A DNA stretch of 12,209 nucleotides, from IMG/VR virus record IMGVR_UViG_2531839468_000024; one strand, 5' to 3'. The DNA is from a virus. Taxonomy: Duplodnaviria; Heunggongvirae; Uroviricota; Caudoviricetes. Made by a program: the position numbers and the translations under genes. Below, one piece after another: positions 428-12,209 of this stretch (its first letter is position 1; every line of letters starts with the position of its first letter). Under the pieces are notes generated by a model. That model saw only the letters and a program-made list of their open reading frames with translations, was not told the DNA's origin and made no database searches.

Positions 428-1114
428 TCACTCCTTCTCTTCTTTATCGTAGTGGAGTTGACCAATTTTGATAAGAGGGCGTCCCTGAGATTTGCGGTGT
501 AGATTGGTATCGCGCAGAGAATACACACAGCCACAATATTCCTGCTGATAGAATTTTTCGCGCTTGCTGATTTCAATCATGCGGGACGAGCCGCCCTGCT
601 TGCGCCAGTTATAATCCCAGTACACCATGCCCGGATAATGCGCGACGGCTCGCCGCCCACAGTCGTTAACCTGCTGCATATTTTTCCAGCGTGAAATGCC
701 CAGTGAACTGCTGATCACACTGAAACCATTTTCAGCAGCGTACAGCGCTGTCCGCTCAAAACGCATGTCAAAACACATGGTACAACGGATCCCCCTCTCG
801 GGCTCCCATTCCATTCCTTTGGCACGTTCAAACCAGTTGTCTGTGTCGTAATCAGCATCAATAAATGGCACGCCGTGTTGTTCAGCAAAGCGAATATTCT
901 CATCCTTACGAATTAAATACTCTTTCTGAGGATGAATGTTCGGGTTGTAGAAAAAGATGGTATAGTCGATTCCCGAGGCCTGAAGCGCCTCCATCACTTC
1001 ACCGGAACATGGAGCACAGCAAGAGTGCAGTAGTAGTTTGTTTGCCCCGTTTGGGAGCTCCAATTTAGGCCGTTTGAAATCAGCAATAGTCATAAATATT
1101 TTTATTGGGGTCAT
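428..1114 (-). CDS. queH: DUF208 / QueH-like epoxyqueuosine reductase (Fe-S enzyme of queuosine tRNA modification)
   Basis: 228-aa ORF with [11 protein letters not shown] motif near the N-terminus plus later cysteines ([14 protein letters not shown]), as I recall for the QueH/DUF208 family. No clear Shine-Dalgarno for either candidate ATG (1114 or 1093). Confidence 0.55.
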
Positions 1115-1290: not shown

Positions 1291-1689
1291 TCACTGATAA
1301 AATGCCAGTATGCGCTGCATAACTTCGCTCTTCCGGCACTCACAGCAAATTATGTTTTGGTGCCTGTCATAACGACGTATTTCTCCGTCAGGTAATGACC
1401 AGATAAGGTCCGGATCAACCACAGATGTTTTCTTCACCTTTGCCCTCGAGAGTTTTTTGCGGGCGTTTTGCCAGTCCTTACGAGCCTGTTCAGACGGGAA
1501 TAACCCGTAGCCAGAGTTATATACATCACCACTGGCAACCAGCTCTCTGGCGAGAACGCTCATCAGATATCTTGTCGCACCTGTCTTGGCTTCCAGTTGC
1601 CGTAACGTCTCGCGCCCACTCCGGCGTACTAGCTCAACAACCTGCCCCTTGATTTTTTCCCGCTCTTCTTGTGTAAAAACTTTTGCCAC
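1291..1689 (-). CDS. Hypothetical 132-aa protein downstream of the O-like replication gene
   Basis: GTG start preceded by a strong SD (AAGGGGGAC, reverse complement of 1692-1700); 40 bp downstream of the O-like stop, same strand. No family recognised. Confidence 0.5.
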   Translation of the reverse strand: MAKVFTQEEREKIKGQVVELVRRSGRETLRQLEAKTGATRYLMSVLARELVASGDVYNSGYGLFPSEQARKDWQNARKKLSRAKVKKTSVVDPDLIWSLPDGEIRRYDRHQNIICCECRKSEVMQRILAFYQ

Positions 1690-1729
1690 AAGTCCCCCTT
1701 AAAATTACCTCATGACCTGAAATCAAAAC

Positions 1730-2695
1730 TTATCCTCTGAAACCAGGCGGAATTTCTGTATCCGGTTCAGAAATATGATTAACACAACGCTGTACAGGTG
1801 AACGCCCCAGGCGGATGACCAGTTCGTCCCATTTTTCGCGGAGCTTTGACGGGCTCATGATGTTTTTTACCCAGAATGGATCCCGCTGTACCCGACCAAA
1901 CATTTCACAAATTTGTCTGTGGCTTCTGCCATCCAGCATCCGCATTGTGCGCACATCATTGGCCCAGACAGTCCAGTTAGGCTCTTTTGGTCGCATGATC
2001 TCGCCATCATCACTGGCGGCCTGTTCGTAGAGACCCACGATCCGCCCCCATATCCACTGCGCACACGCCAGATCCTCCTGGCTACCCCACTGGCGTTTTT
2101 TCGCACTAAACACAACTGCGCCAGGGTGCCGGATTAAAAAATCCTGTTCAGCCGTCTGCGGGTCCGGTTGCGAAGCTTCCGGACGAAAAGTGTTTTTATT
2201 CTCTGTAGTAATCTCTGTTGTATTCTCTGTAGGATCATCGGGCCATTTTGACCCGATGACATTGGGTCGTTTTGAACCAATGGAGCGTTTCATTTTGACC
2301 TCTTCCATCGTGTCATTTTGACCTGATGGAGCGGCGCATTTTGAACCGATGGATTCGCTCAATTTGCCATCATCTAAAAGCTCGCTCCCATAGTTAATCG
2401 TGTAGAAATTGGTCATATCGCGCTTTGATTTATTGAGCTTTTCACAACGCAAAAGCCCCAGCGTTTTCAGACTTGCAAACGCGCGCTTTAACGTTGACTC
2501 TGACCAGAATGGGAACTGTTCCAGCCATTGTTCCGTTGTGTTGTAAATCCAGCGAACACCATCACATTCCATGCCGGAATTGGTATCTCTCAACCAGTAA
2601 TGCAACTGCTGCAACACAATGGCTTCATTTAAGCCAATCTTCATCGCAAGCTGTGTGTTTATAACCAGTGGGCGTTCAGCAAAAAGAAGGCTCAT
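1730..2695 (-). CDS. Lambdoid replication initiator (O-like) with internal origin
   Basis: ORF track gives 1730-2749 (TTG start); I prefer the ATG at 2693-2695 (MSLLFAERPLVINTQLAMKIGLNEAIVLQQLHYWL...), giving a 321-aa product. The N-terminal region resembles replication-initiator DNA-binding domains; the iteron array lies inside the gene as in lambda O. Confidence 0.6.
   Translation of the reverse strand: MSLLFAERPLVINTQLAMKIGLNEAIVLQQLHYWLRDTNSGMECDGVRWIYNTTEQWLEQFPFWSESTLKRAFASLKTLGLLRCEKLNKSKRDMTNFYTINYGSELLDDGKLSESIGSKCAAPSGQNDTMEEVKMKRSIGSKRPNVIGSKWPDDPTENTTEITTENKNTFRPEASQPDPQTAEQDFLIRHPGAVVFSAKKRQWGSQEDLACAQWIWGRIVGLYEQAASDDGEIMRPKEPNWTVWANDVRTMRMLDGRSHRQICEMFGRVQRDPFWVKNIMSPSKLREKWDELVIRLGRSPVQRCVNHISEPDTEIPPGFRG
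2186..2233. repeat. AT-rich tract with three 11-12-bp direct repeats (ATTCTCTGTAG / AATCTCTGTTG / ATTCTCTGTAG) next to the iterons
   Basis: Repeats at 2198-2208, 2210-2220, 2222-2232. The tract lies downstream of the iterons in the coding direction of the O-like gene, matching the iteron-then-AT-rich layout of lambda ori. Confidence 0.5.
2244..2375. repeat. Iteron array: 5 good copies plus 1 degenerate copy of CATTTTGA(C/A)C-(N)-GATGG at 23-bp periodicity; putative replication origin
   Basis: Copies start at 2244, 2268, 2291, 2314, 2337 and (degenerate) 2360; read directly from the sequence. They encode a repetitive (S/V)IGSK linker in the O-like protein. Confidence 0.7.
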
Positions 2696-3197
2696 AATTC
2701 CATCCAGCTTTTTGTTGGTATTGCTGTCGATACGCAAGTTTGAAAGCAATTGCTTTTTCTATAAGTTCGTCAGTTTCACGATCCACTACGGCAGGATCAG
2801 CAAAAAGCAGTCCGGACTCCACCACATCGCCATATTCTTTGTTTAACCCGGCGATCATGTACGTGATGCTTTTTCCGTCACTAATTTCACGATGCAACCT
2901 GAAATCATTAATCCGGATAGCCTCCATAATTGCAGGCACTAGCGCCGTGAACTTTTCACGCTTATCCCTGGTGTCGATAGCCTTCCAGCGTTCGAATATC
3001 TTCACTCGATTAACGCCAAGCGCTCGCTGATCAACCGCGCCACCTTCATCTGTGACACGCTGAACATCGATGTTCGGGCGCTCTTTCAAAGCCCAGAATG
3101 CTTCAGTGATTAATATCGTCGCCTGCTCCTGTGTCATTCCTGGTCGACATATCCAGGCATCCAGAGCCTCACGAGCCTGTTCAGGAGTGATTTTCAT
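2676..3197 (-). CDS. Hypothetical 173-aa early protein at the CII position (possibly YdaT-like)
   Basis: ATG start at 3195-3197; overlaps the Cro-like gene stop by 17 nt and the O-like start by 20 nt, so it sits in a tightly packed rightward early operon. Family assignment is by position only. Confidence 0.45.
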   Translation of the reverse strand: MKITPEQAREALDAWICRPGMTQEQATILITEAFWALKERPNIDVQRVTDEGGAVDQRALGVNRVKIFERWKAIDTRDKREKFTALVPAIMEAIRINDFRLHREISDGKSITYMIAGLNKEYGDVVESGLLFADPAVVDRETDELIEKAIAFKLAYRQQYQQKAGWNYEPSFC

Positions 3198-3408
3198 TGT
3201 TCAACCGCCCCGCCCGCTTCGTCTTACGATATTCGTCATAAACCTTGGGATCATACAGAAGCTCGCCGCCAGATGCCTCCTGTAGACGCATCGCGCGACC
3301 TTCAGGAACCAGCTCTTGCCATTGAGAAACAGCAGATGGGTCAACGCCAGCAGCTTTCGCTACTTTGGCTTTCGTACCGTAAAAATTAATTACGTCTGAT
3401 TTAAACAT
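3181..3408 (-). CDS. dicC: Cro-like small DNA-binding protein (DicC/YdaS family)
   Basis: ORF track start at 3435 is TTG; the internal ATG at 3406-3408 has a strong SD (GGAGGT) and gives a 75-aa product, MFKSDVINFYGTKAKVAKAAGVDPSAVSQWQ..., with an HTH-like segment. Divergent from the repressor. Confidence 0.65.
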   Translation of the reverse strand: MFKSDVINFYGTKAKVAKAAGVDPSAVSQWQELVPEGRAMRLQEASGGELLYDPKVYDEYRKTKRAGRLNNENHS

Positions 3409-3485
3409 CGCACCTCCAATATTGAGTTTTCTCAATGCTAATCACTCAAGGAATCTCAAGTCAAGGGTTATTAAGATATCTAAAT
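3409..3485. promoter_or_regulatory. Divergent promoter/operator region between the Cro-like and repressor genes
   Basis: Inverted repeat ATTGAG-N4-CTCAAT at 3421-3436; further CTCAAG half-sites at 3445-3450 and 3455-3460. The core TTGAGTTTTCTCA recurs downstream of the repressor gene. Confidence 0.55.
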
Positions 3486-3893
3486 ATGAACGAGAAAACT
3501 TTAGGTCAACGCATTAGAGAAAGACGTAAGCAGGTAGGCTTAAGTCAAAACGGTTTAAGCAAAGCTGCTGGCGTATCTGGCTCATCAATTTCATTATGGG
3601 AAAGTGACCATACAGCCCCGCGCGGGCAAAATTTGCATCGCCTCGCCGAGGTATTGCAGTGTTCACCAACCTGGATACTGTTTGGCGACGAGGACAAAAC
3701 ACCAGCTCCCCCTGTTTCACTCGATAGTGCCTTAGACTTATCGGAAGATGAGTTAGAGATGCTGCGTTTGTATCGCGCACTTCCTAAATCAGAGCAACAA
3801 GCACAACTCAGCGAACTCCGCGCCCGCGTTGAGAATTTTAATCGCCTGTTCACCGAGCTATTAGAGGCTCGCAAACGCAACAAGCATCAATAA
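3486..3893 (+). CDS. dicA: DicA-like HTH (XRE-family) prophage repressor
   Basis: ATG at 3486 gives 135 aa. HTH near the N-terminus (QRIRERRKQVGLSQNGLSKAAGVSGSSISLWE) and a conserved VLQCSPTWILFGDEDK segment that I recall from Qin DicA. Weak or absent SD, consistent with a cI-like leaderless or weakly initiated message. Confidence 0.75.
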   Translation: MNEKTLGQRIRERRKQVGLSQNGLSKAAGVSGSSISLWESDHTAPRGQNLHRLAEVLQCSPTWILFGDEDKTPAPPVSLDSALDLSEDELEMLRLYRALPKSEQQAQLSELRARVENFNRLFTELLEARKRNKHQ

Positions 3894-3954
3894 TCATCCC
3901 TTCACAAAATTTTAAAGCCTTACATTTCAATGTATTGGCTTTATCTTGCGCCAA

Positions 3955-4016
3955 TGCTTGAGTTTTCTCATCAAAAAGCCTTGACGAAAAATAATGAGAA
4001 AACTAAATTACCTCCA
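3955..4016 (+). promoter_or_regulatory. Putative repressor-controlled promoter of the early-left (dicB-type) operon with two operator-like sites
   Basis: TTGAGTTTTCTCA at 3958-3970, identical to 3422-3434; inverted variant TGAGAAAACTAA at 3995-4006; candidate -35 TTGACG (3981-3986) and -10 TAAATT (4004-4009) with a 17-bp spacer. Confidence 0.5.
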
Positions 4017-4085
4017 TCAACACACCGCACGGTGTTCTCAGCAAACAGTTCCGCTACCCCGGCGTTAAGGGGAAATGAGGTCAGC

Positions 4086-4238
4086 ATGGATACTATCGAT
4101 CTTGGCAACAGCGAATCTCTGGTATGTGGCGTGTTCCCCAACCAGGACGGTACGTTCACCGCGATGACATATACCAAAAGCAAAACGTTTAAAACCGAAT
4201 CTGGCGCGCGTTGCTGGTTAGCCAGAAACACTGACTGA
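4086..4238 (+). CDS. ydfA: YdfA/YdaF-like (DUF1391) small protein
   Basis: The 102-aa ORF in the track is probably over-extended; the ATG at 4086 with SD GAGG (4077-4080) gives a 50-aa product, MDTIDLGNSESLVCGVFPNQDGTFTAMTYTKSKTFKTESGARCWLARNTD, matching the size and sequence character I recall for Qin YdfA / Rac YdaF. Confidence 0.6.
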   Translation: MDTIDLGNSESLVCGVFPNQDGTFTAMTYTKSKTFKTESGARCWLARNTD

Positions 4239-4249
4239 TGAGGCTGACG

Positions 4250-4615
4250 ATGGAATTTAAAGATTTACCGTCTGATGTACAGAAAACAGCAGCTCATACA
4301 TTGCATTCTGTGCTGCGAGAAATCGGGAAAGATATTGCAAGCGAGCCAGCAAAAGATCTGGCCCGGAAAATCAAGACCGCTTTCGTTGAGCTTTATAATG
4401 TTGGCACTGACTCTGAAACTGTCGAGACCAAGACCGTAAGTTCACCAATATTCTCACTTGAGCCAGGCGTATTATCAGGTGAAATATGCACCGAGATTTC
4501 CAGCGAACTGCTTCCGGTAATACGAGAAGCAATTTGCCGTCGCGGTTTGGATGGAAGTTACGATCATGACGTCCTGCAAGTTCTCAGGACAATGGTGACT
4601 TCACTGGGGATTTGA
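4250..4615 (+). CDS. Hypothetical 121-aa protein (position of ydfB/ydfC in Qin)
   Basis: ATG at 4250 with SD GAGG (4240-4243); the ORF track begins at 4238, overlapping the previous stop. No family recognised. Confidence 0.5.
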   Translation: MEFKDLPSDVQKTAAHTLHSVLREIGKDIASEPAKDLARKIKTAFVELYNVGTDSETVETKTVSSPIFSLEPGVLSGEICTEISSELLPVIREAICRRGLDGSYDHDVLQVLRTMVTSLGI

Positions 4616-4696
4616 TCCCTGCGTCCTCTAACCCGAGTTGTCAGGTTGACCATACGCTTAAGTGACAACCCCGCTGCAACGCCCTCTGTTATCAAT

Positions 4697-4754
4697 TTTC
4701 TGGTGACGTTTGGCGGTATCAGTTTTACTCCGTGACTGCTCTGCCGCCGTTTTT
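4697..4754 (+). ncRNA. dicF: DicF-like small regulatory RNA (ftsZ-targeting sRNA of dicB operons)
   Basis: TTTCTGGTGACGTTTGGCGGTATCAGTTTTACTCCGTGACTGCTCTGCCGCCG followed by a T-run (4750-4754); this matches DicF as I recall it, and it sits in a roughly 300-bp non-coding gap just upstream of the DicB-like ORF. No covariance-model search was possible. Confidence 0.65.
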
Positions 4755-5393: not shown

Positions 5394-7864
5394 ATGAGTA
5401 AAGTCTTTATTTGCGCCGCTATTCCTGACGAACTGGCAACAAGGGAAGAAGGCGCTGTGGCTGTAGCCACAGCCATTGAAGCTGGCGACGAACGCCGTGC
5501 TCGAGCAAAATTTCACTGGCAGTTCCTGGAACATTATCCGGCTGCTCAGGACTGCGCTTATAAATTTATTGTCTGCGAGGATAAACCTGGCATACCCCGC
5601 CCTGCCCTCGATTCATGGGATGCTGAATATATGCAGGAAAACCGCTGGGATGAGGAGTCTGCTTCTTTTGTCCCGGTTGAGACTGAATCCGATCCGATGA
5701 ACGTCACTTTTGACAAGCTGGCCCCTGAAGTACAGAACGCTGTCATGGTTAAGTTCGACACATGTGAAAACATCACCGTTGATATGGTTATTAGCGCACA
5801 GGAATTGTTGCAGGAAGACATGGCAACATTCGACGGACATATCGTTGAAGCGTTGATGAAAATGCCAGAAGTTAACGCCATGTATCCGGAGCTTAAGTTG
5901 CACGCCATTGGGTGGGTTAAGCATAAATGTATTCCTGGTGCTAAATGGCCCGAAATTCAGGCAGAGATGCGCATCTGGAAAAAACGTCGCGAAGGTGAAC
6001 GCAAGGAAACCGGAAAATACACGTCTGTTGTTGATCTCGCCCGCGCCAGAGCCAATCAACAGTACACTGAAAATTCAACAGGAAAAATCAGCCCGGTCAT
6101 TGCTGCCATTCATCGCGAATACAAGCAGACATGGAAAACACTGGATGACGAACTGGCCTACGCTCTCTGGCCTGGTGATGTGGATGCCGGAAACATTGAC
6201 GGCAGCATCCATCGCTGGGCAAAAAAGAAGTTATCGACAACGACCGCGAAGACTGGAAGCGTATCTCGGCATCAATGCGCAAACAGCCTGATGCCCTTCG
6301 CTACGACCGCCAGACTATTTTTGGCCTTGTCCGTGAGCGTCCGATCGACATTCACAAAGATCCCATAGCACTGAACAAATATATCTGCGAATACCTGACG
6401 ACAAAGGGCGTGTTTGAGAGTGAAGAAACAGACCTGGGCACTGTTGATGTTCTCCAGTCATCAGAAACACAAACTGATGCAGTGGAAACTGAGGTATCTG
6501 ATATCCCAAAAAATGAAACCGCGCCGGAAGCTGAACCATCTGTAGAGCGTGAGGGGCCGTTCTATTTCCTCTTCGCAGATAAGGACGGAGAAAAATACGG
6601 TCGCGCAAACAAACTTTCTGGTCTGGATAAGGCACTGGCTGCTGGCGCCACTGAAATCACAAAAGAAGAATATTTTGCCCGAAAAAATGGCACATACACG
6701 GGCTTACCGCAAAATGTAGATACCGCTGAAGATTCAGAACAACCAGAGCCGATAAAAGTTACCGCTGACGAAGTAAACAAAATTATGCAGGCAGCCAATA
6801 TCAGCCAGCCTGACGCCGATAAGTTGCTTGCTGCATCACGTGGTGAATTTGTTGAAGGGATTAGTGACCCGAATGATCCGAAATGGGTTAAGGGGATCCA
6901 GACCCGCGATTCTGTGAACCAGAACCAGCATGAATCGGAACGGAACTACCAAAAAGCGGAACAAAACAGCACAAATGCGTTACAAAACGAGCCAGAAACG
7001 AAACAGCCTGAACCAGTGGCGCAACAGGAAGTGGAAAAAGTCTGCACCGCCTGCGGTCAGACCGGCGGCGGCAACTGCCCTGATTGTGGCGCGGTGATGG
7101 GCGACGCAACATACCAAGAAACATTCGATGAAGAGTATCAGGTTGAAGTTCAGGAAGATGATCCGGAGGAAATGGAAGGCGCTGAACATCCACACAAGGA
7201 GAACACTGGCGGCAATCAGCATCACAATAGCGATAATGAAACTGGCGAGACGGCAGATCACTCAATTAAGGTGAACGGTCATCACGAAATCACATCCACC
7301 AGCAGGACGTGTGACCATCTAATGATCGACCTTGAAACCATGGGAAAAAATCCTGATGCCCCGATCATCTCAATAGGTGCAATATTTTTCGATCCGCAAA
7401 CCGGAGATATGGGACCGGAATTTAGTAAGACTATCGATCTGGAAACTGCTGGCGGAGTCATTGATCGGGACACCATTAAATGGTGGCTTAAGCAATCACG
7501 CGAAGCGCAATCTGCCATTATGACCGATGAAATCCCGTTAGATGATGCACTGTTACAATTGCGGGAATTTATCGACGAAAACTCCGGTGAATTTTTTGTT
7601 CAGGTTTGGGGAAATGGAGCCAACTTCGACAACACGATTTTGCGCCGTTCATACGAACGGCAGGGGATCCCCTGCCCGTGGCGTTACTACAACGATCGCG
7701 ATGTACGCACAATCGTTGAGCTGGGGAAAGCCATAGACTTCGATGCCAGAACGGCTATTCCATTCGAAGGTGAGCGCCATAATGCACTTGATGACGCCCG
7801 TTACCAGGCAAAATACGTTTCAGTTATCTGGCAAAAACTGATCCCGAGTCAGGCTGATTCTTAA
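5394..7864 (+). pseudogene. YdfE-like large early protein (about 820 aa if fused): unknown N-terminal region, acidic linker, C4 zinc-ribbon-like motif and C-terminal DEDDh (DnaQ-like) 3'-5' exonuclease domain; reading frame broken near 6221-6227
   Basis: Two overlapping ORFs (5394-6368 and 6275-7864); the second frame is open from 6200, and one added base in the A6 run (6221-6226) joins them. Exo motifs: DLET (about 7327-7338), NGANFDNTIL, HNALDDARYQAKY. CTACGQTGGGNCPDCG at about 7045-7092. Confidence 0.65.
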
Positions 7865-8065: not shown

Positions 8066-8148
8066 GTAACCGGCTCATTTAAACCGTCTGGTCTGTTTCC
8101 TCCGGCTCTACAAAAATAATGTCCATCATTTTTAATGGACACTATCGT

Positions 8149-8331
8149 ATGAAACACCGGACCTGGATCACTGAAGCTTTACGTCTTCACTTTGAAGAAC
8201 ATTTACCCCGGGTTGTGGCCGGGCGTCGCCTGAGTGTACCAAAATCAACAGTTTGTAGTATGTTCGTGCGCTTTCGGAGAGCTGGCCTTTCGGTGGCCTT
8301 TGCCCGCAGGCATGTCGGAGCAGGAACTTGA
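8149..8331 (+). CDS. IS-internal upstream ORF of unknown role (HTH-like basic peptide)
   Basis: ATG at 8149 (the track begins at 8119); MKHRTWITEALRLHFEEHLPRVVAGRRLSVPKSTV...; its stop overlaps an ATG at 8331 (TGATG). May be an accessory ORF or chance ORF within the IS left arm. Confidence 0.25.
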   Translation: MKHRTWITEALRLHFEEHLPRVVAGRRLSVPKSTVCSMFVRFRRAGLSVAFARRHVGAGT

Positions 8332-8461
8332 TGCCTGCCTATACGGACAATTTTTCCACGGTACCAGTCGTACGTCCTGAAAGCACCGTTATATCCGAAG
8401 CCCCCGAGGTAAAAAACGTCCCCGGCGGCCCAACTTCCCTTATGAGTTTAAAATCGCCTTA

Positions 8462-8797
8462 GTGGAGCAGTCACTACAGCCCGGAGCCTGTGTGGCGCAG
8501 ATCGCCCGGGAAAACGGAATCAACGATAACCTGCTCTTCAACTGGCGCCATCAATACCGGAAAGGTGGCCTGCTGCCTTCCGGAGAAAATATGCCGGCAC
8601 TGCTTCCCGTGACGTTAACGCCGGAGCCGGATAATAAAATCCCGGCCCCCGCACAGGAACCAGAGCAGATAAATACACCGTCCGACAGTCTGTGTTGTGA
8701 GCTGGTTCTGCCGGCCGGAACTCTCAGGCTTAAAGGTAAACTGACGCCGGCGTTATTACAGACACTTATCCGCGAAATAAAAGGGAGCAGCCACTGA
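8462..8797 (+). CDS. tnpA: IS66-family TnpA (orf1); conserved coding appears to extend upstream of the first in-frame start
   Basis: The first standard start in frame is GTG at 8462, but the same frame is open from 8381 and encodes KKRPRRPNFPYEFKIALVEQSLQPGACVAQIARENGINDNLLFNWRHQYRKG, matching the RRR-x-S-x-EFK...LF-WR-Q pattern I recall for IS66 TnpA. Confidence 0.6.
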   Translation: MEQSLQPGACVAQIARENGINDNLLFNWRHQYRKGGLLPSGENMPALLPVTLTPEPDNKIPAPAQEPEQINTPSDSLCCELVLPAGTLRLKGKLTPALLQTLIREIKGSSH

Positions 8798-9144
8798 TGA
8801 TATCTCTCCCTGCAGGTTCGCGTATCTGGCTGGTTGCAGGTATCACCGATATGCGAAATGGCTTTAACGGCCTGGCATCAAAAGTTCAGAACGTCCTGAA
8901 GGATGACCCGTTCTCCGGACACCTGTTCATCTTCCGCGGACGCCGGGGTGACCAGATAAAAGTGTTGTGGGCTGACAGTGACGGACTGTGCCTCTTCACC
9001 AAACGCCTGGAGCGGGGCCGCTTCGTCTGGCCAGTCACCCGTGACGGCAAGGTGCACCTTACTCCGGCTCAGTTATCCATGCTTCTTGAAGGTATCAACT
9101 GGAAGCACCCGAAACGAACGGAACGCGCTGGAATCCGCATATAA
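8797..9144 (+). CDS. tnpB: IS66-family TnpB (orf2)
   Basis: 115 aa, MISLPAGSRIWLVAGITDMRNGFNGLA...GHLFIFRGRRGDQIKVLWADSDGLCLFTKRLERGRF, the characteristic IS66 orf2 sequence; start overlaps the tnpA stop. Confidence 0.85.
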   Translation: MISLPAGSRIWLVAGITDMRNGFNGLASKVQNVLKDDPFSGHLFIFRGRRGDQIKVLWADSDGLCLFTKRLERGRFVWPVTRDGKVHLTPAQLSMLLEGINWKHPKRTERAGIRI

Positions 9145-9163
9145 CCCGTTGTAAAGTGAGGAT

Positions 9164-10734
9164 ATGGACACCTCACTTGCTCATGAGAACGCCCGCCTGC
9201 GGGCACTGTTGCAGACGCAACAGGACACCATCCGCCAGATGGCTGAATACAACCGCCTGCTCTCACAGCGGGTGGCGGCTTATGCTTCCGAAATCAACCG
9301 GCTGAAGGCGCTGGTTGCGAAACTGCAACGTATGCAGTTCGGTAAAAGCTCAGAAAAACTTCGTGCAAAAACCGAACGGCAGATACAGGAAGCACAGGAG
9401 CGAATCAGCGCACTTCAGGAAGAAATGGCGGAAACGCTGGGTGAGCAATATGACCCGGTACTGCCATCCGCCCTGCGCCAGTCTTCAGCCCGTAAACCGT
9501 TACCGGCCTCACTTCCCCGTGAAACCCGGGTTATCCGGCCGGAAGAGGAATGCTGTCCTGCCTGTGGTGGTGAACTCAGTTCTCTGGGATGTGATGTGTC
9601 AGAGCAACTGGAGCTTATCAGCAGCGCCTTTAAGGTTATCGAAACACAACGTCCGAAACAGGCCTGTTGCCGGTGCGACCATATCGTGCAGGCACCAGTA
9701 CCTTCAAAACCCATTGCACGCAGTTATGCCGGAGCGGGGCTTCTGGCCCATGTTGTCACCGGGAAATATGCAGACCATCTGCCGTTATACCGCCAGTCAG
9801 AAATATACCGTCGTCAGGGAGTGGAGCTGAGCCGTGCCACACTGGGGCGCTGGACAGGTGCTGTTGCTGAACTGCTGGAGCCGCTGTATGACGTCCTGCG
9901 CCAGTATGTGCTGATGCCCGGTAAAGTCCATGCTGATGATATCCCCGTCCCGGTCCAGGAGCCGGGCAGCGGTAAAACCCGGACAGCCCGGCTGTGGGTC
10001 TACGTCCGTGATGACCGTAACGCCGGTTCACAGATGCCCCCGGCGGTCTGGTTCGCGTACAGTCCGGACCGGAAAGGTATCCATCCACAAAATCACCTGG
10101 CCGGTTACAGCGGTGTGCTTCAGGCCGATGCTTACGGTGGTTACCGGGCGTTATACGAATCCGGCAGAATAACGGAAGCCGCGTGTATGGCTCATGCCCG
10201 GAGAAAATCCACGATGTGCATGCAAGAGCGCCCACCTACATCACCACGGAAGCCCTGCAGCGTATCGGTGAACTGTATGCCATCGAGGCAGAGGTCCGGG
10301 GCTGTTCAGCAGAACAGCGTCTGGCGGCAAGAAAAGCCAGAGCCGCGCCACTGATGCAGTCACTGTATGACTGGATACAGCAACAGATGAAAACACTGTC
10401 GCGTCACTCAGATACGGCAAAAGCGTTCGCATACCTGCTGAAACAGTGGGATGCACTGAACGTGTACTGCAGTAATGGCTGGGTGGAAATCGACAACAAC
10501 ATCGCAGAGAACGCCTTACGGGGAGTGGCCGTAGGCCGGAAAAACTGGATGTTCGCGGGTTCCGACAGCGGTGGTGAACATGCGGCGGTGTTGTACTCGC
10601 TGATCGGCACATGCCGTCTGAACAATGTGGAGCCAGAAAAGTGGCTGCGTTACGTCATTGAACATATCCAGGACTGGCCGGCAAACCGGGTACGCGATCT
10701 GTTGCCCTGGAAAGTTGATCTGAGCTCTCAGTAA
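9164..10734 (+). pseudogene. tnpC: IS66-family TnpC transposase, frameshifted (two ORFs, 9164-10354 and 10183-10734)
   Basis: N-terminal coiled-coil/leucine-zipper-like region, CPACGG zinc-finger motif, then ...[11 protein letters not shown] in one frame continuing as IHDVHA... in the next; one added base near 10208 would restore a single reading frame of about 520 aa. Confidence 0.8.
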
Positions 10735-10764
10735 ATATCAATACGGTTCTGACGAGTCGCTTAC

Positions 10765-10895: not shown

Positions 10896-10929
10896 CTAAA
10901 AGCCACACTAACTAATGAGAGAAGTTGAA

Positions 10930-12209
10930 ATGAAATATCCGACAGGCGTGGAAAACCATGGAGGGAAATTACGTATCTGGTTTGTTTATAAAGGCGTAAG
11001 AGTCAGGGAAAATCTGGGGGTTCCTGACACAGCAAAAAACAGGCACGTTGCAGGTGAACTACGCTCCTCTGTTTGTTACGCAATAAAAACTGGTGTTTTC
11101 GACTATGCAAAACAGTTTCCCTCCTCACGCAATCTGGAAAAATTTGGTGAGGCCCGACAAGATTTAACCATAAAAGAACTGGCTGAAAAATTTCTGGCAC
11201 TGAAAGAAACTGAAGTCGCCAAAACATCACTCAACACATACCGTGCCGTCATCAAAAATATCCTGAGCATAATCGGTGAAAAAAATCTTGCCTCATCGAT
11301 TAATAAAGAAAAATTACTGGAGGTTCGTAAAGAGCTACTGACTGGATACCAGATCCCCAAAAGTAACTATATTGTTACACAACCAGGGAGATCGGCTGTA
11401 ACTGTAAATAATTACATGACAAATCTTAACGCCGTGTTCCAGTTTGGTGTTGATAACGGTTACCTGCCAGATAATCCGTTTAAGGGGATCTCGCCATTAA
11501 AGGAATCAAGAACCATTCCGGATCCTCTTTCGCGGGAGGAATTTATCCGTCTTATCGATGCGTGCAGAAATCAGCAAGCAAAAAATATATGGTGTGTTTC
11601 TGTTTATACTGGCGTTCGCCCTGGTGAGCTGTGTGCACTTGGATGGGAGGACATAGATCTGAAAAATGGAACAATGATGATCAGGAGAAATTTAGCAAAA
11701 GACCGTTTCACGGTACCAAAAACACAGGCGGGAACCAATCGGGTCATTCATCTTATTAAGCCAGCAATCGACGCTCTCCGGAGTCAGATGACATTAACGA
11801 GACTGAGCAAAGAGCATATCATTGATGTTCACCTCAGAGAGTATGGCAGAACAGAAAAACAAAAATGCACCTTTGTTTTTCAACCTGAAGTGTCAGCGAG
11901 AGTAAAAATTATGGTGACCATTTTACCGTTGACTCAATAAGGCAGATGTGGGACGCAGCGATAAAACGTGCCGGACTCCGCCATCGAAAATCATATCAGT
12001 CGAGACATACTTATGCCTGCTGGTCGCTGACAGCTGGTGCTAACCCGGCATTTATAGCAAACCAGATGGGCCATGCAGATGCGCAAATGGTATTTCAGGT
12101 ATACGGAAAATGGATGTCTGAAAACAATAATGCACAGGTAGCTTTGTTAAATACACAGTTAAGCGAGTTTGCCCCAACCATGCCCCATAACGAAGCAATG
12201 AAAAATTAA
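10930..12209 (+). pseudogene. int: Lambda-family tyrosine integrase, frame broken at an A5 run (11904-11908)
   Basis: Two ORFs (10915-11940 and 11946-12209); the downstream frame is open from 11889 and carries the catalytic HxxR (SRHTYA), second His (GHAD) and Tyr (VYGKW) region; the N-terminus PTGVE...LRIWFVYKGVRVRE is typical of lambdoid integrases. Confidence 0.8.

Follow-up and report, generated by a model that had tools for sequence, protein, structure and literature searches.

The window analysed here, a stretch of 12,209 nucleotides deposited as IMG/VR virus record IMGVR_UViG_2531839468_000024 (Caudoviricetes), belongs to an Escherichia coli lambdoid prophage of the mEp460/HannyBb type that lies at the Qin position and adjoins rspB. 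On its minus strand it carries a gene for an O-type replication initiator, and we present evidence supporting the reading of positions 2186-2375, inside this gene, as a replication origin of the lambda type. The gene is laid out as an N-terminal DNA-binding domain, a disordered linker encoded by the origin, a lambda-O-type C-terminal domain and a short tail that resembles the end of the host protein DnaT. The features are listed below in coding order (window positions; the origin elements are given without strand; AF2, AlphaFold2).

1730..2695, minus strand: O-type replication initiator gene, 321 amino acids, with the ATG at 2695 (open reading frame and translation)
2381..2695, minus strand: N-terminal domain, residues 1-105, presumed iteron-binding winged helix (AF2 helix and strand at residues 14-100)
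2352..2374: iteron 1, degenerate, in register with the array, GATGATGGCAAATTGAGCGAATC (coding strand)
2329..2351: iteron 2, CATCGGTTCAAAATGCGCCGCTC
2306..2328: iteron 3, CATCAGGTCAAAATGACACGATG
2283..2305: iteron 4, GAAGAGGTCAAAATGAAACGCTC
2260..2282: iteron 5, CATTGGTTCAAAACGACCCAATG, whose core TCAAAACGA is the core of lambda iteron 1
2236..2258: iteron 6, the best dyad, CATCGGG-TCAAAATGG-CCCGATG (inverted repeat detected)
2186..2233: AT-rich, least stable tract, candidate unwinding element, with three 12-bp repeats of the TACAGAGAATAC type (coding strand) at 2197-2232
1802..2149, minus strand: lambda-O-type C-terminal domain, residues 183-298 (BLASTP against lambda O; helical in the AF2 model)
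1733..1792, minus strand: DnaT-like C-terminal tail, residues 302-321, QRCVNHISEPDTEIPPGFRG, identical at 14 of 20 positions to the last 20 residues of E. coli K-12 DnaT

Repeat anatomy and conservation of the origin

Two arrays emerge from Tandem Repeats Finder, one with a period of 23 bp at 2270-2353 and one with a period of 12 bp at 2200-2232. A repeat search places 23-bp copies at 2236-2258, 2260-2282, 2306-2328 and 2329-2351, with further copies in register at 2283-2305 and 2352-2374, so that the iterons are spaced by 24, 23, 23, 23 and 23 bp. The best of them are dyads with inverted arms of 7 bp (CATCGGG and CCCGATG on the coding strand). Over 2236-2375 the lag-23 self-identity reaches 0.547, whereas the other windows of 140 bp and the other lags together give 0.254 +/- 0.044 (z = 6.7). 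The lag-12 identity of the 12-mers is 0.83, a value that not one of 21,789 control windows attains. The tract at 2186-2233 has an A+T content of 68.8% (51.6% in the gene as a whole) and is the most AT-rich 48 bp of the gene. The stability minimum of the gene, computed over 40 bp, also begins at 2186, with a free energy of -44.6 kcal/mol against a mean of -55.1 +/- 3.5, and the instability of the tract lies at the 99th percentile of the window. Together, iterons and 12-mers encode residues 106-166, and the C-terminal domain begins near residue 183.

The segment is thus coding, and IGSK occurs three times in the protein. The iteron core TCAAAAYG, however, starts at gene positions 352, 375, 398, 421 and 445 and thereby falls in all three reading frames; the peptides read from the successive cores are GSK, GQN, VKM, GSK and GSK. 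For comparison we took relatives from Escherichia, Citrobacter, Rahnella, Edwardsiella and Proteus; between their N-domains and that of the window, identity is 58-84%. Relative to the closest of these (L005, L006 and L007), the iteron segment shows a nucleotide identity of 0.82-0.86 and an amino-acid identity of 0.65-0.71. The 12-mer segment, too, is more similar as DNA than as protein. Where residues are identical, their codons are so as well in a fraction of 0.88-0.91 for the iterons and 1.00 for the 12-mers, against 0.36-0.59 for the N- and C-domains. For more distant relatives (L107, L114, L117 and L121) the fractions in iterons and 12-mers range from 0.57 to 1.00, based on few residues.

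The 12-mers (ACAGAGAWTAC) recur nearly base for base in all relatives with the same N-domain; they are conserved as DNA in Rahnella, Edwardsiella, Proteus and Scandinavium, in 3-5 copies. Alleles differ by whole units: P0020 is short of exactly 93 bp of the array, and P0100 and the Edwardsiella locus L114 have four or five 12-mers. As judged from these alignments, the origin segment is shown to be under selection at the DNA level and not at the level of the peptide. A repetitive protein linker, or chance, as the source of the periodicity is therefore most improbable, since 23 is not a multiple of 3 and the cores occupy every frame, synonymous sites are frozen, the lag-23 signal is strong and the array is kept across genera together with the N-domain.

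An earlier note on this DNA had proposed five good iterons and one degenerate copy with a 23-bp period, which both repeat programs and the lag-23 statistic bear out. Its boundaries needed adjustment: the array starts at 2236 instead of 2244, and the gap of 10 bp that it placed between iterons and AT-rich repeats is 3 bp, measured from the last iteron to the first 12-mer. The three repeats of the AT-rich tract hold and coincide with the stability minimum of the gene, at an A+T content that is moderate. The proposed order in the coding direction, iterons first and AT-rich tract second, agrees with the annotated origin of lambda. As to orthologous O-like genes, from which the note allowed that the repeats might be missing, the array was found to persist across genera with the N-domain. 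Overall, position, form, DNA-level conservation and N-domain specificity are all as expected for a lambda-ori-like element within an O-like gene.

Two further observations concern the flank and the completeness of the origin in relatives. Just past the 12-mers, the Proteus (L117) and Scandinavium (L111) relatives carry TTCGTCGCAGAATTCTGACGAATCC, a GAATTC-centred sequence seen by eye to be near lambda's TTCGTCAGAGAATTCTGGCGAATCC to the right of the AT-rich tract; at this spot the window reads differently (TTCGTCCGGAAGCTTCGCAACC), with no detectable inverted repeat. In P0128 the whole origin is missing, along with part of the N-domain and linker.

Initiator domains and iteron specificity

In BLASTP, residues 147-294 of the initiator align with the C-terminal half of lambda O (34% identity over 148 residues, E 3e-27). 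Among PHROGs it matches phrog_391, 'replication initiation O-like' (E 3e-92), as well as phrog_9773 and phrog_277 with the same label. A Pfam search of the initiator returned no family, and NCBIfam none beyond a weak DnaT match in the tail; Phage_rep_O (PF04492), which is matched by both lambda O and Gifsy-2 O, was not matched. A PDB sequence search with the N-domain gave nothing meaningful. The AF2 model is of low confidence (predicted local distance difference test score 53, from an alignment of nine sequences) and was used for the layout of order and disorder only; in it the N-domain can be read as winged-helix-like, and the origin-encoded residues 103-178 appear as a disordered linker.

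For iteron specificity we used 80 O C-domain homologues (one genome per species), to which the window, lambda and four further loci were added. The statistics are drawn from genome contigs, and a viral-contig scan, in which relatives were all at least 91% identical, was left out of them. All O genes that have a homologous N-domain, of whichever C-terminal class, contain an array of TCAAAAYG at 23-, 24-, 46- or 70-bp spacing; among them are those of Rahnella (58% identical), Edwardsiella (65%) and Proteus (about 61%). In the approximately 60 O genes with other N-domains we found zero arrays; six of these genes carry one stray TCAAAAYG match each. Within this set the type of iteron is shown to track the N-domain and not the C-domain. 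Iterons travel with the N-domain, as expected if the N-domain reads them. The prophage family is very common in E. coli, and its origin adds a second iteron/N-domain specificity group with which to study the reading of coding DNA by O-type initiators.

The DnaT-like tail and helicase loading

The tail was first flagged by a weak match to positions 160-179 of the NCBIfam DnaT family, and its similarity to DnaT has an E of 1e-7. In a profile-profile alignment of the initiator with DnaT (hhalign), only the 19 tail columns align; a deeper kinship between the O C-domain and the DNA-binding domain of DnaT, tested in the same way, was not found. According to Pfam, the initiator contains neither the DNA-binding domain of DnaT (PF17948) nor its N-terminal oligomerisation domain. 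The motif S-x-P-D-x-x-I-P-x-G-F-R-G is invariant in 11 DnaT orthologues. Lambda O has a tryptophan-rich end, ..LTNTDWIYGVDL. The label 'primosomal protein I' given to the mEp460 O gene most probably rests on the tail alone, and on several other tail-bearing genes the same label is probably due to it alone as well.

O in the window is followed by a DUF977/YdaW-like gene, and no homologue of P, DnaC or DnaB is present downstream; the complete 45-kb genome of HannyBb likewise has no P, DnaC or DnaB homologue, either by annotation or by tblastn. The absence of a helicase-loader gene after O had been pointed out in the earlier note. It extends to phage genomes deposited as complete (HannyBb, mEp460, PhiR42_1), in which it is a conserved property and not the outcome of decay. 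A related locus, L005, has the same synteny of cro, cII-like gene, O and DUF977 and the same origin, and adds a P gene and a tryptophan-rich tail. Its DNA homology with the window (80%) ends at window position 1806, which corresponds to residue 296, exactly before the tail. The DUF977 protein was considered as a substitute for P and rejected, since in L005 it occurs alongside P.

To relate tail and loader, a set of 83 O homologues, 80 of which each represent a different species, was sorted by C-terminal tail, and the 3 kb downstream were searched with tblastn.

Tail ..IPxGFRG (DnaT-type), n = 18: P in 0, DnaC-like gene in 2, neither in 16
Looser tail ..GFR, n = 3: P in 0, DnaC-like gene in 0, neither in 3
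Tail ..WNxxEAWExxL, n = 25: P in 25, DnaC-like gene in 0, neither in 0
Lambda-like tail ..NTDWIxGV, n = 17: P in 17, DnaC-like gene in 0, neither in 0

When pooled, DnaT-type tails are followed by P in 0/21 cases, by a DnaC paralogue in 2/21 and by nothing in 19/21, against P in 42/42 for the tryptophan-rich tails of the lambda type; in both classes of the latter the P homologue overlaps or abuts the O stop. Judged by gene content, DnaT-type tail and P gene are shown to be mutually exclusive among the O homologues. The pattern can be put as an either/or rule (tryptophan-rich tail with P; DnaT-type tail with DnaC or with nothing), and the tail would be a simple sequence marker from which to predict the host factors that a temperate phage depends on. 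In a full-text literature search we found no paper describing this rule, which may nevertheless have been described before; nor, as far as searched, did we find an earlier description of this origin.

A fourth class of O homologues, 363-385 residues long, was seen in Sodalis, Acerihabitans, Edwardsiella, Morganella and Proteus (L112-L118 and L121-L126). Its members have a C-terminal extension of about 50-70 residues containing W-N-x-I-W, and some combine it with an N-domain and iterons of the window type. Neither P nor DnaC was found downstream in any of them, and the class may represent a third mode of helicase recruitment.

The DnaT-type tail is not bound to one type of initiator, as the following cases show.

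Rac YdaU: DUF1376 scaffold, followed by the DnaC-like YdaV
Gifsy-2 O: Phage_rep_O N-domain, followed by a DnaC-like gene
Stx phage 75/02 initiator: no Pfam family, followed by a DnaC-like gene
SPN1S and PAT1 initiators: DnaT DNA-binding domain (shown for SPN1S), no loader follows
Tritos, 640R1 and a Klebsiella phage, initiators: no loader follows
P0136 initiator: HTH_36 with a non-O C-terminal region, DnaT-type tail

A tblastn search of the tail against 50,697 phage records gave 46 enterobacterial matches. Each falls either at the C-terminal end of a replication protein or of DnaT itself, or in a record that has no annotation; in none of the records inspected does P come after the tail. A 30-residue tail query against 1.84 billion representatives returned 16 hits, mostly fragments, the query being too short for a census. 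The genes that follow GFRG-tailed initiators are mutually unrelated (PerC, MT-A70, ParB-HTH, DUF1627, DUF1064, DUF977), and the only recurrent partner of the tail is a DnaC-like gene. In the E. coli host, dnaT lies directly upstream of dnaC. At positions 3120-3977 of locus L169 (ydaU of the E. coli K-12 Rac prophage), the DUF1376 protein YdaU ends in RQVNTVSLPDSAIPPGFRG, which is the DnaT tail, and precedes the DnaC-like YdaV; this supports YdaU as the putative Rac initiator.

Taking these results together, we consider it likely that 2186-2375 is a lambda-type origin embedded in the linker of its initiator, that the tail recruits DnaB-DnaC of the host, and that the phage therefore needs one replication gene. 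By analogy with lambda, dimers of the N-domain would bind the iterons and wrap the DNA, which would then melt at the 12-mer/AT-rich tract with the aid of transcription from a pR-like promoter. The tail would act as a portable docking peptide that brings host DnaB-DnaC to the opened origin, the host loader being used instead of P. DnaC is the most likely contact, because a DnaC paralogue is the only recurrent neighbour and because of the host gene order dnaT-dnaC. The DnaT-like tail thus probably explains how this group of phages replicates with no helicase-loader gene of its own.

A number of points weigh against this reading. No inverted repeat was found in 2120-2240, to the right of the AT-rich tract, where lambda has one; the tract itself is less AT-rich than that of lambda (~78% by our own count), and the N-domain has no detectable relationship with the N-domain of lambda O. 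The association of tail and loader is a correlation among related, recombining phages and does not by itself identify the partner; the tail could bind PriA, PriB, SSB or single-stranded DNA instead. For DnaT it is the N-terminal domain, not the tail, that has been proposed as a possible recruiter of DnaB/DnaC (PMC13377028). These phages also have many small uncharacterised genes, one of which could be a new loader, and the prophage in the window bears indels and an IS66 element elsewhere, so that this copy may never fire.

Alternatively, mimicry of DnaT might serve to dock the tail onto PriA or PriB, with the origin passed on to the restart primosome of the host. In DnaT, a hydrophobic interface on the C-terminal domain does contact PriA, and the linker contacts PriB (PMC13377028). 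However, the published PriA contact involves the folded C-terminal domain of DnaT, which is absent from the window protein, and a part of the extreme DnaT tail in PriA or PriB contacts is not stated in the same paper. Docking of this kind predicts neither the pairing of GFRG tails with phage DnaC paralogues nor the dnaT-dnaC operon, and we regard it as unlikely.

Somewhat less likely still is an unrecognised loader encoded by the phage, in the form of the DUF977 protein or another small gene, with some other role for the tail. DUF977 sits exactly at the position of lambda P, many genes of these phages are annotated as 'hypothetical', and non-homologous phage loaders continue to be discovered (for example VdhL; PMC11087808). 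Yet DUF977 also follows P in L005 and is found in Rac-type modules, where it coexists with loaders, and no candidate gene is common to the tail-bearing modules other than the DnaC-like partner.

Beyond this locus, recruitment of DnaB-DnaC by the tail leads to a wider proposal, which we put forward tentatively as a possibility that falls a little short of being favoured. The last ~20 residues of DnaT (..SEPDxxIPPGFRG) would be a portable docking peptide for DnaC-type loading, grafted by temperate enterobacterial phages onto at least four unrelated initiator scaffolds, namely the lambda-O-type C-domain, DUF1376/YdaU, the HTH_36 initiator P0136 and, as in SPN1S, initiators with a DnaT domain. An initiator bearing it would need no phage loader, which would define a one-gene, P-independent lambdoid branch, and the dnaT-dnaC operon would be a domesticated pair of phage initiator and loader. 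How DnaT recruits DnaB/DnaC is stated as unknown in the 2026 cryo-electron microscopy study of the preprimosome (PMC13377028), and the structure of DnaT residues 154-179 is likewise unknown (PMC4132743). Lambda O deprived of its last 5 residues is inactive (PMC6022878). This requirement, together with the either/or rule and the unassigned function of the DnaT tail, makes for a testable hypothesis of how DnaT hands DnaB-DnaC to DNA in replication restart; if true, the DnaT tail would supply the connection that is still missing from the restart preprimosome to DnaB-DnaC.

Prophage setting and comparison with known systems

The genes around the initiator follow the order known from lambda, as far as the P position.

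1291..1689, minus strand: DUF977/YdaW-like ('Ren-like') gene (PF06163, E 8e-29; phrog_142), occupying the position of lambda P
2676..3197, minus strand: cII/YdaT-like gene (PF06254 and phrog_163), whose 3' end overlaps the start of O
3181..3408, minus strand: Cro-like gene (PF14549, P22_Cro; RefSeq annotation of identical DNA)
3435..3464, minus strand: pR-like promoter match reading towards cro, the cII-like gene and O (weak evidence, from a consensus scan only, 9/12 positions)

The pR-like promoter would drive transcription across the origin, by analogy with lambda. The overlap of O and the cII/YdaT-like gene amounts to 20 nt (2676-2695) and suggests translational coupling. The DUF977 gene begins 41 nt past the O stop, a stop that P genes overlap or abut in the P-carrying relatives.

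The 1,061-bp stretch that contains the O gene (window 1700-2760) is found at 100% identity in many E. coli genomes, and as a query it was matched over at least 80% of its length in 1,743 of 5,426 complete genomes. With the O-like genes of three phages, HannyBb, mEp460_ev081 and PhiR42_1, the stretch shares 96.7-97.5% identity. From the HannyBb gene (97.5% identity) the initiator gene differs at 25/966 nt, 3 of which lie inside the origin (2232, 2240 and 2266).

Other parts of the prophage are less well preserved. The 2.47-kb exonuclease gene (5394-7864) and the integrase gene (10915-12209) are each broken by a single indel relative to strain 43905, which reflects either pseudogenisation in a decaying prophage or indel errors of the assembly. 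An IS66-family element (8066-10764; ISCro1-like, with tnpA, tnpB and transposase) lies between the excisionase and integrase genes, and its tnpA and transposase each form two open reading frames in the window that are unsplit in the closest genome. A gene for epoxyqueuosine reductase QueH (428-1114, minus strand; PF02677, E 2e-65) follows the DUF977 gene within the prophage. In the closest genome it is followed by Kiwa KwaB-like defence genes, and in ATCC 25922 a DUF4209 gene occupies the spot, which is thus a variable cargo slot. As in Qin, dicB and ydfD are preceded by a full-length gene for the antisense small RNA DicF (4698-4749, plus strand; Rfam RF00039, 72.5 bits). The immunity region at 3313-4632, with a CI-like repressor of 152 residues and its neighbours, has no match in an otherwise 99%-identical E. 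coli genome; the repressor agrees in size and position with the one annotated in HannyBb. The mosaic junction of this region falls inside the cro-like gene (3181-3408), ~95 bp before its start.

It could thus be that the origin is real by descent and inert in this copy, as a conserved relic in a decaying, Qin-like cryptic prophage. The indels that split the exonuclease, IS66 tnpA and tnpC and the integrase relative to the closest genome would fit such a relic, as would the IS66 element between xis and int and the QueH and Kiwa defence genes after DUF977, where phages have nin and late genes. On the other hand, pR-like promoter, cro, cII-like gene, O and origin are all intact, and the O gene is unchanged in many E. 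coli genomes and close to that of HannyBb. The defective Rac prophage, moreover, retains an active origin, oriJ. We therefore judge an inert origin improbable, to about the same degree as a phage-encoded loader.

Compared with the ori/O/P system of lambda, the origin of the window likewise lies within the initiator gene, between the parts coding for the N- and C-domains. In both systems the iterons are dyads that have an A-rich core and follow one another at a distance of about two helical turns (with TCAAAACGA common to iteron 5 and lambda iteron 1), an easily melted tract comes right after the iterons in the coding direction, the C-domains are homologous and the gene order is cro, cII-like, O under a pR-like promoter. 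They differ in that the window has six 23-bp iterons and lambda four of 18-19 bp, in the N-domain (not Pfam Phage_rep_O in the window) and in the AT-rich tract, which in the window consists of three 12-bp repeats and is less AT-rich. The window further has no palindrome to the right of this tract and no P gene, and its tail is DnaT-like, whereas that of lambda reads ..NTDWIYGVDL. L005 (protein P0034) shares N-domain, iterons, 12-mers, C-domain and downstream DUF977 with the window, the DNA from cro as far as O residue 296 being 80% identical, yet its O terminates in ..DWNSADGWEDVL, and a lambda-P homologue (PF06992) comes next.

The Rac module (ydaU-ydaV) also belongs to an E. coli lambdoid prophage and has the order cro-like (ydaS), ydaT, initiator, with the DUF977-family ydaW downstream; YdaU ends in ..VNTVSLPDSAIPPGFRG, a tail of the DnaT type. 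In contrast, YdaU is a DUF1376 protein unrelated to the initiator of the window, and Rac has its own DnaC paralogue, YdaV. With E. coli DnaT (dnaT-dnaC) the window protein has in common the last 20 residues and their motif, and in several phages, too, the gene for a tail-bearing protein immediately precedes that for a DnaC-type loader. Apart from the tail nothing aligns, both DnaT domains being absent, and DnaT works at abandoned forks via PriA/PriB and not at a sequence-specific origin.

A precedent for chimaeras of O and DnaT is DopC of Cellvibrionales and Oceanospirillales (Brezellec et al. 2017), which is derived from O with the C-terminal part of lambda O replaced by C-terminal sequence of DnaT (PMC5509034). 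Unlike the window gene it is a domesticated chromosomal gene without iterons, paired with the P-derived DopE, and it carries the DnaT C-terminal domain (HHpred match 2ru8) instead of a lambda-type C-domain plus tail (PMC5509034). Overall, the origin in the window is an ordinary representative of the lambda type and has an iteron specificity of its own, and the module to which it belongs is a variant of the lambda scheme.

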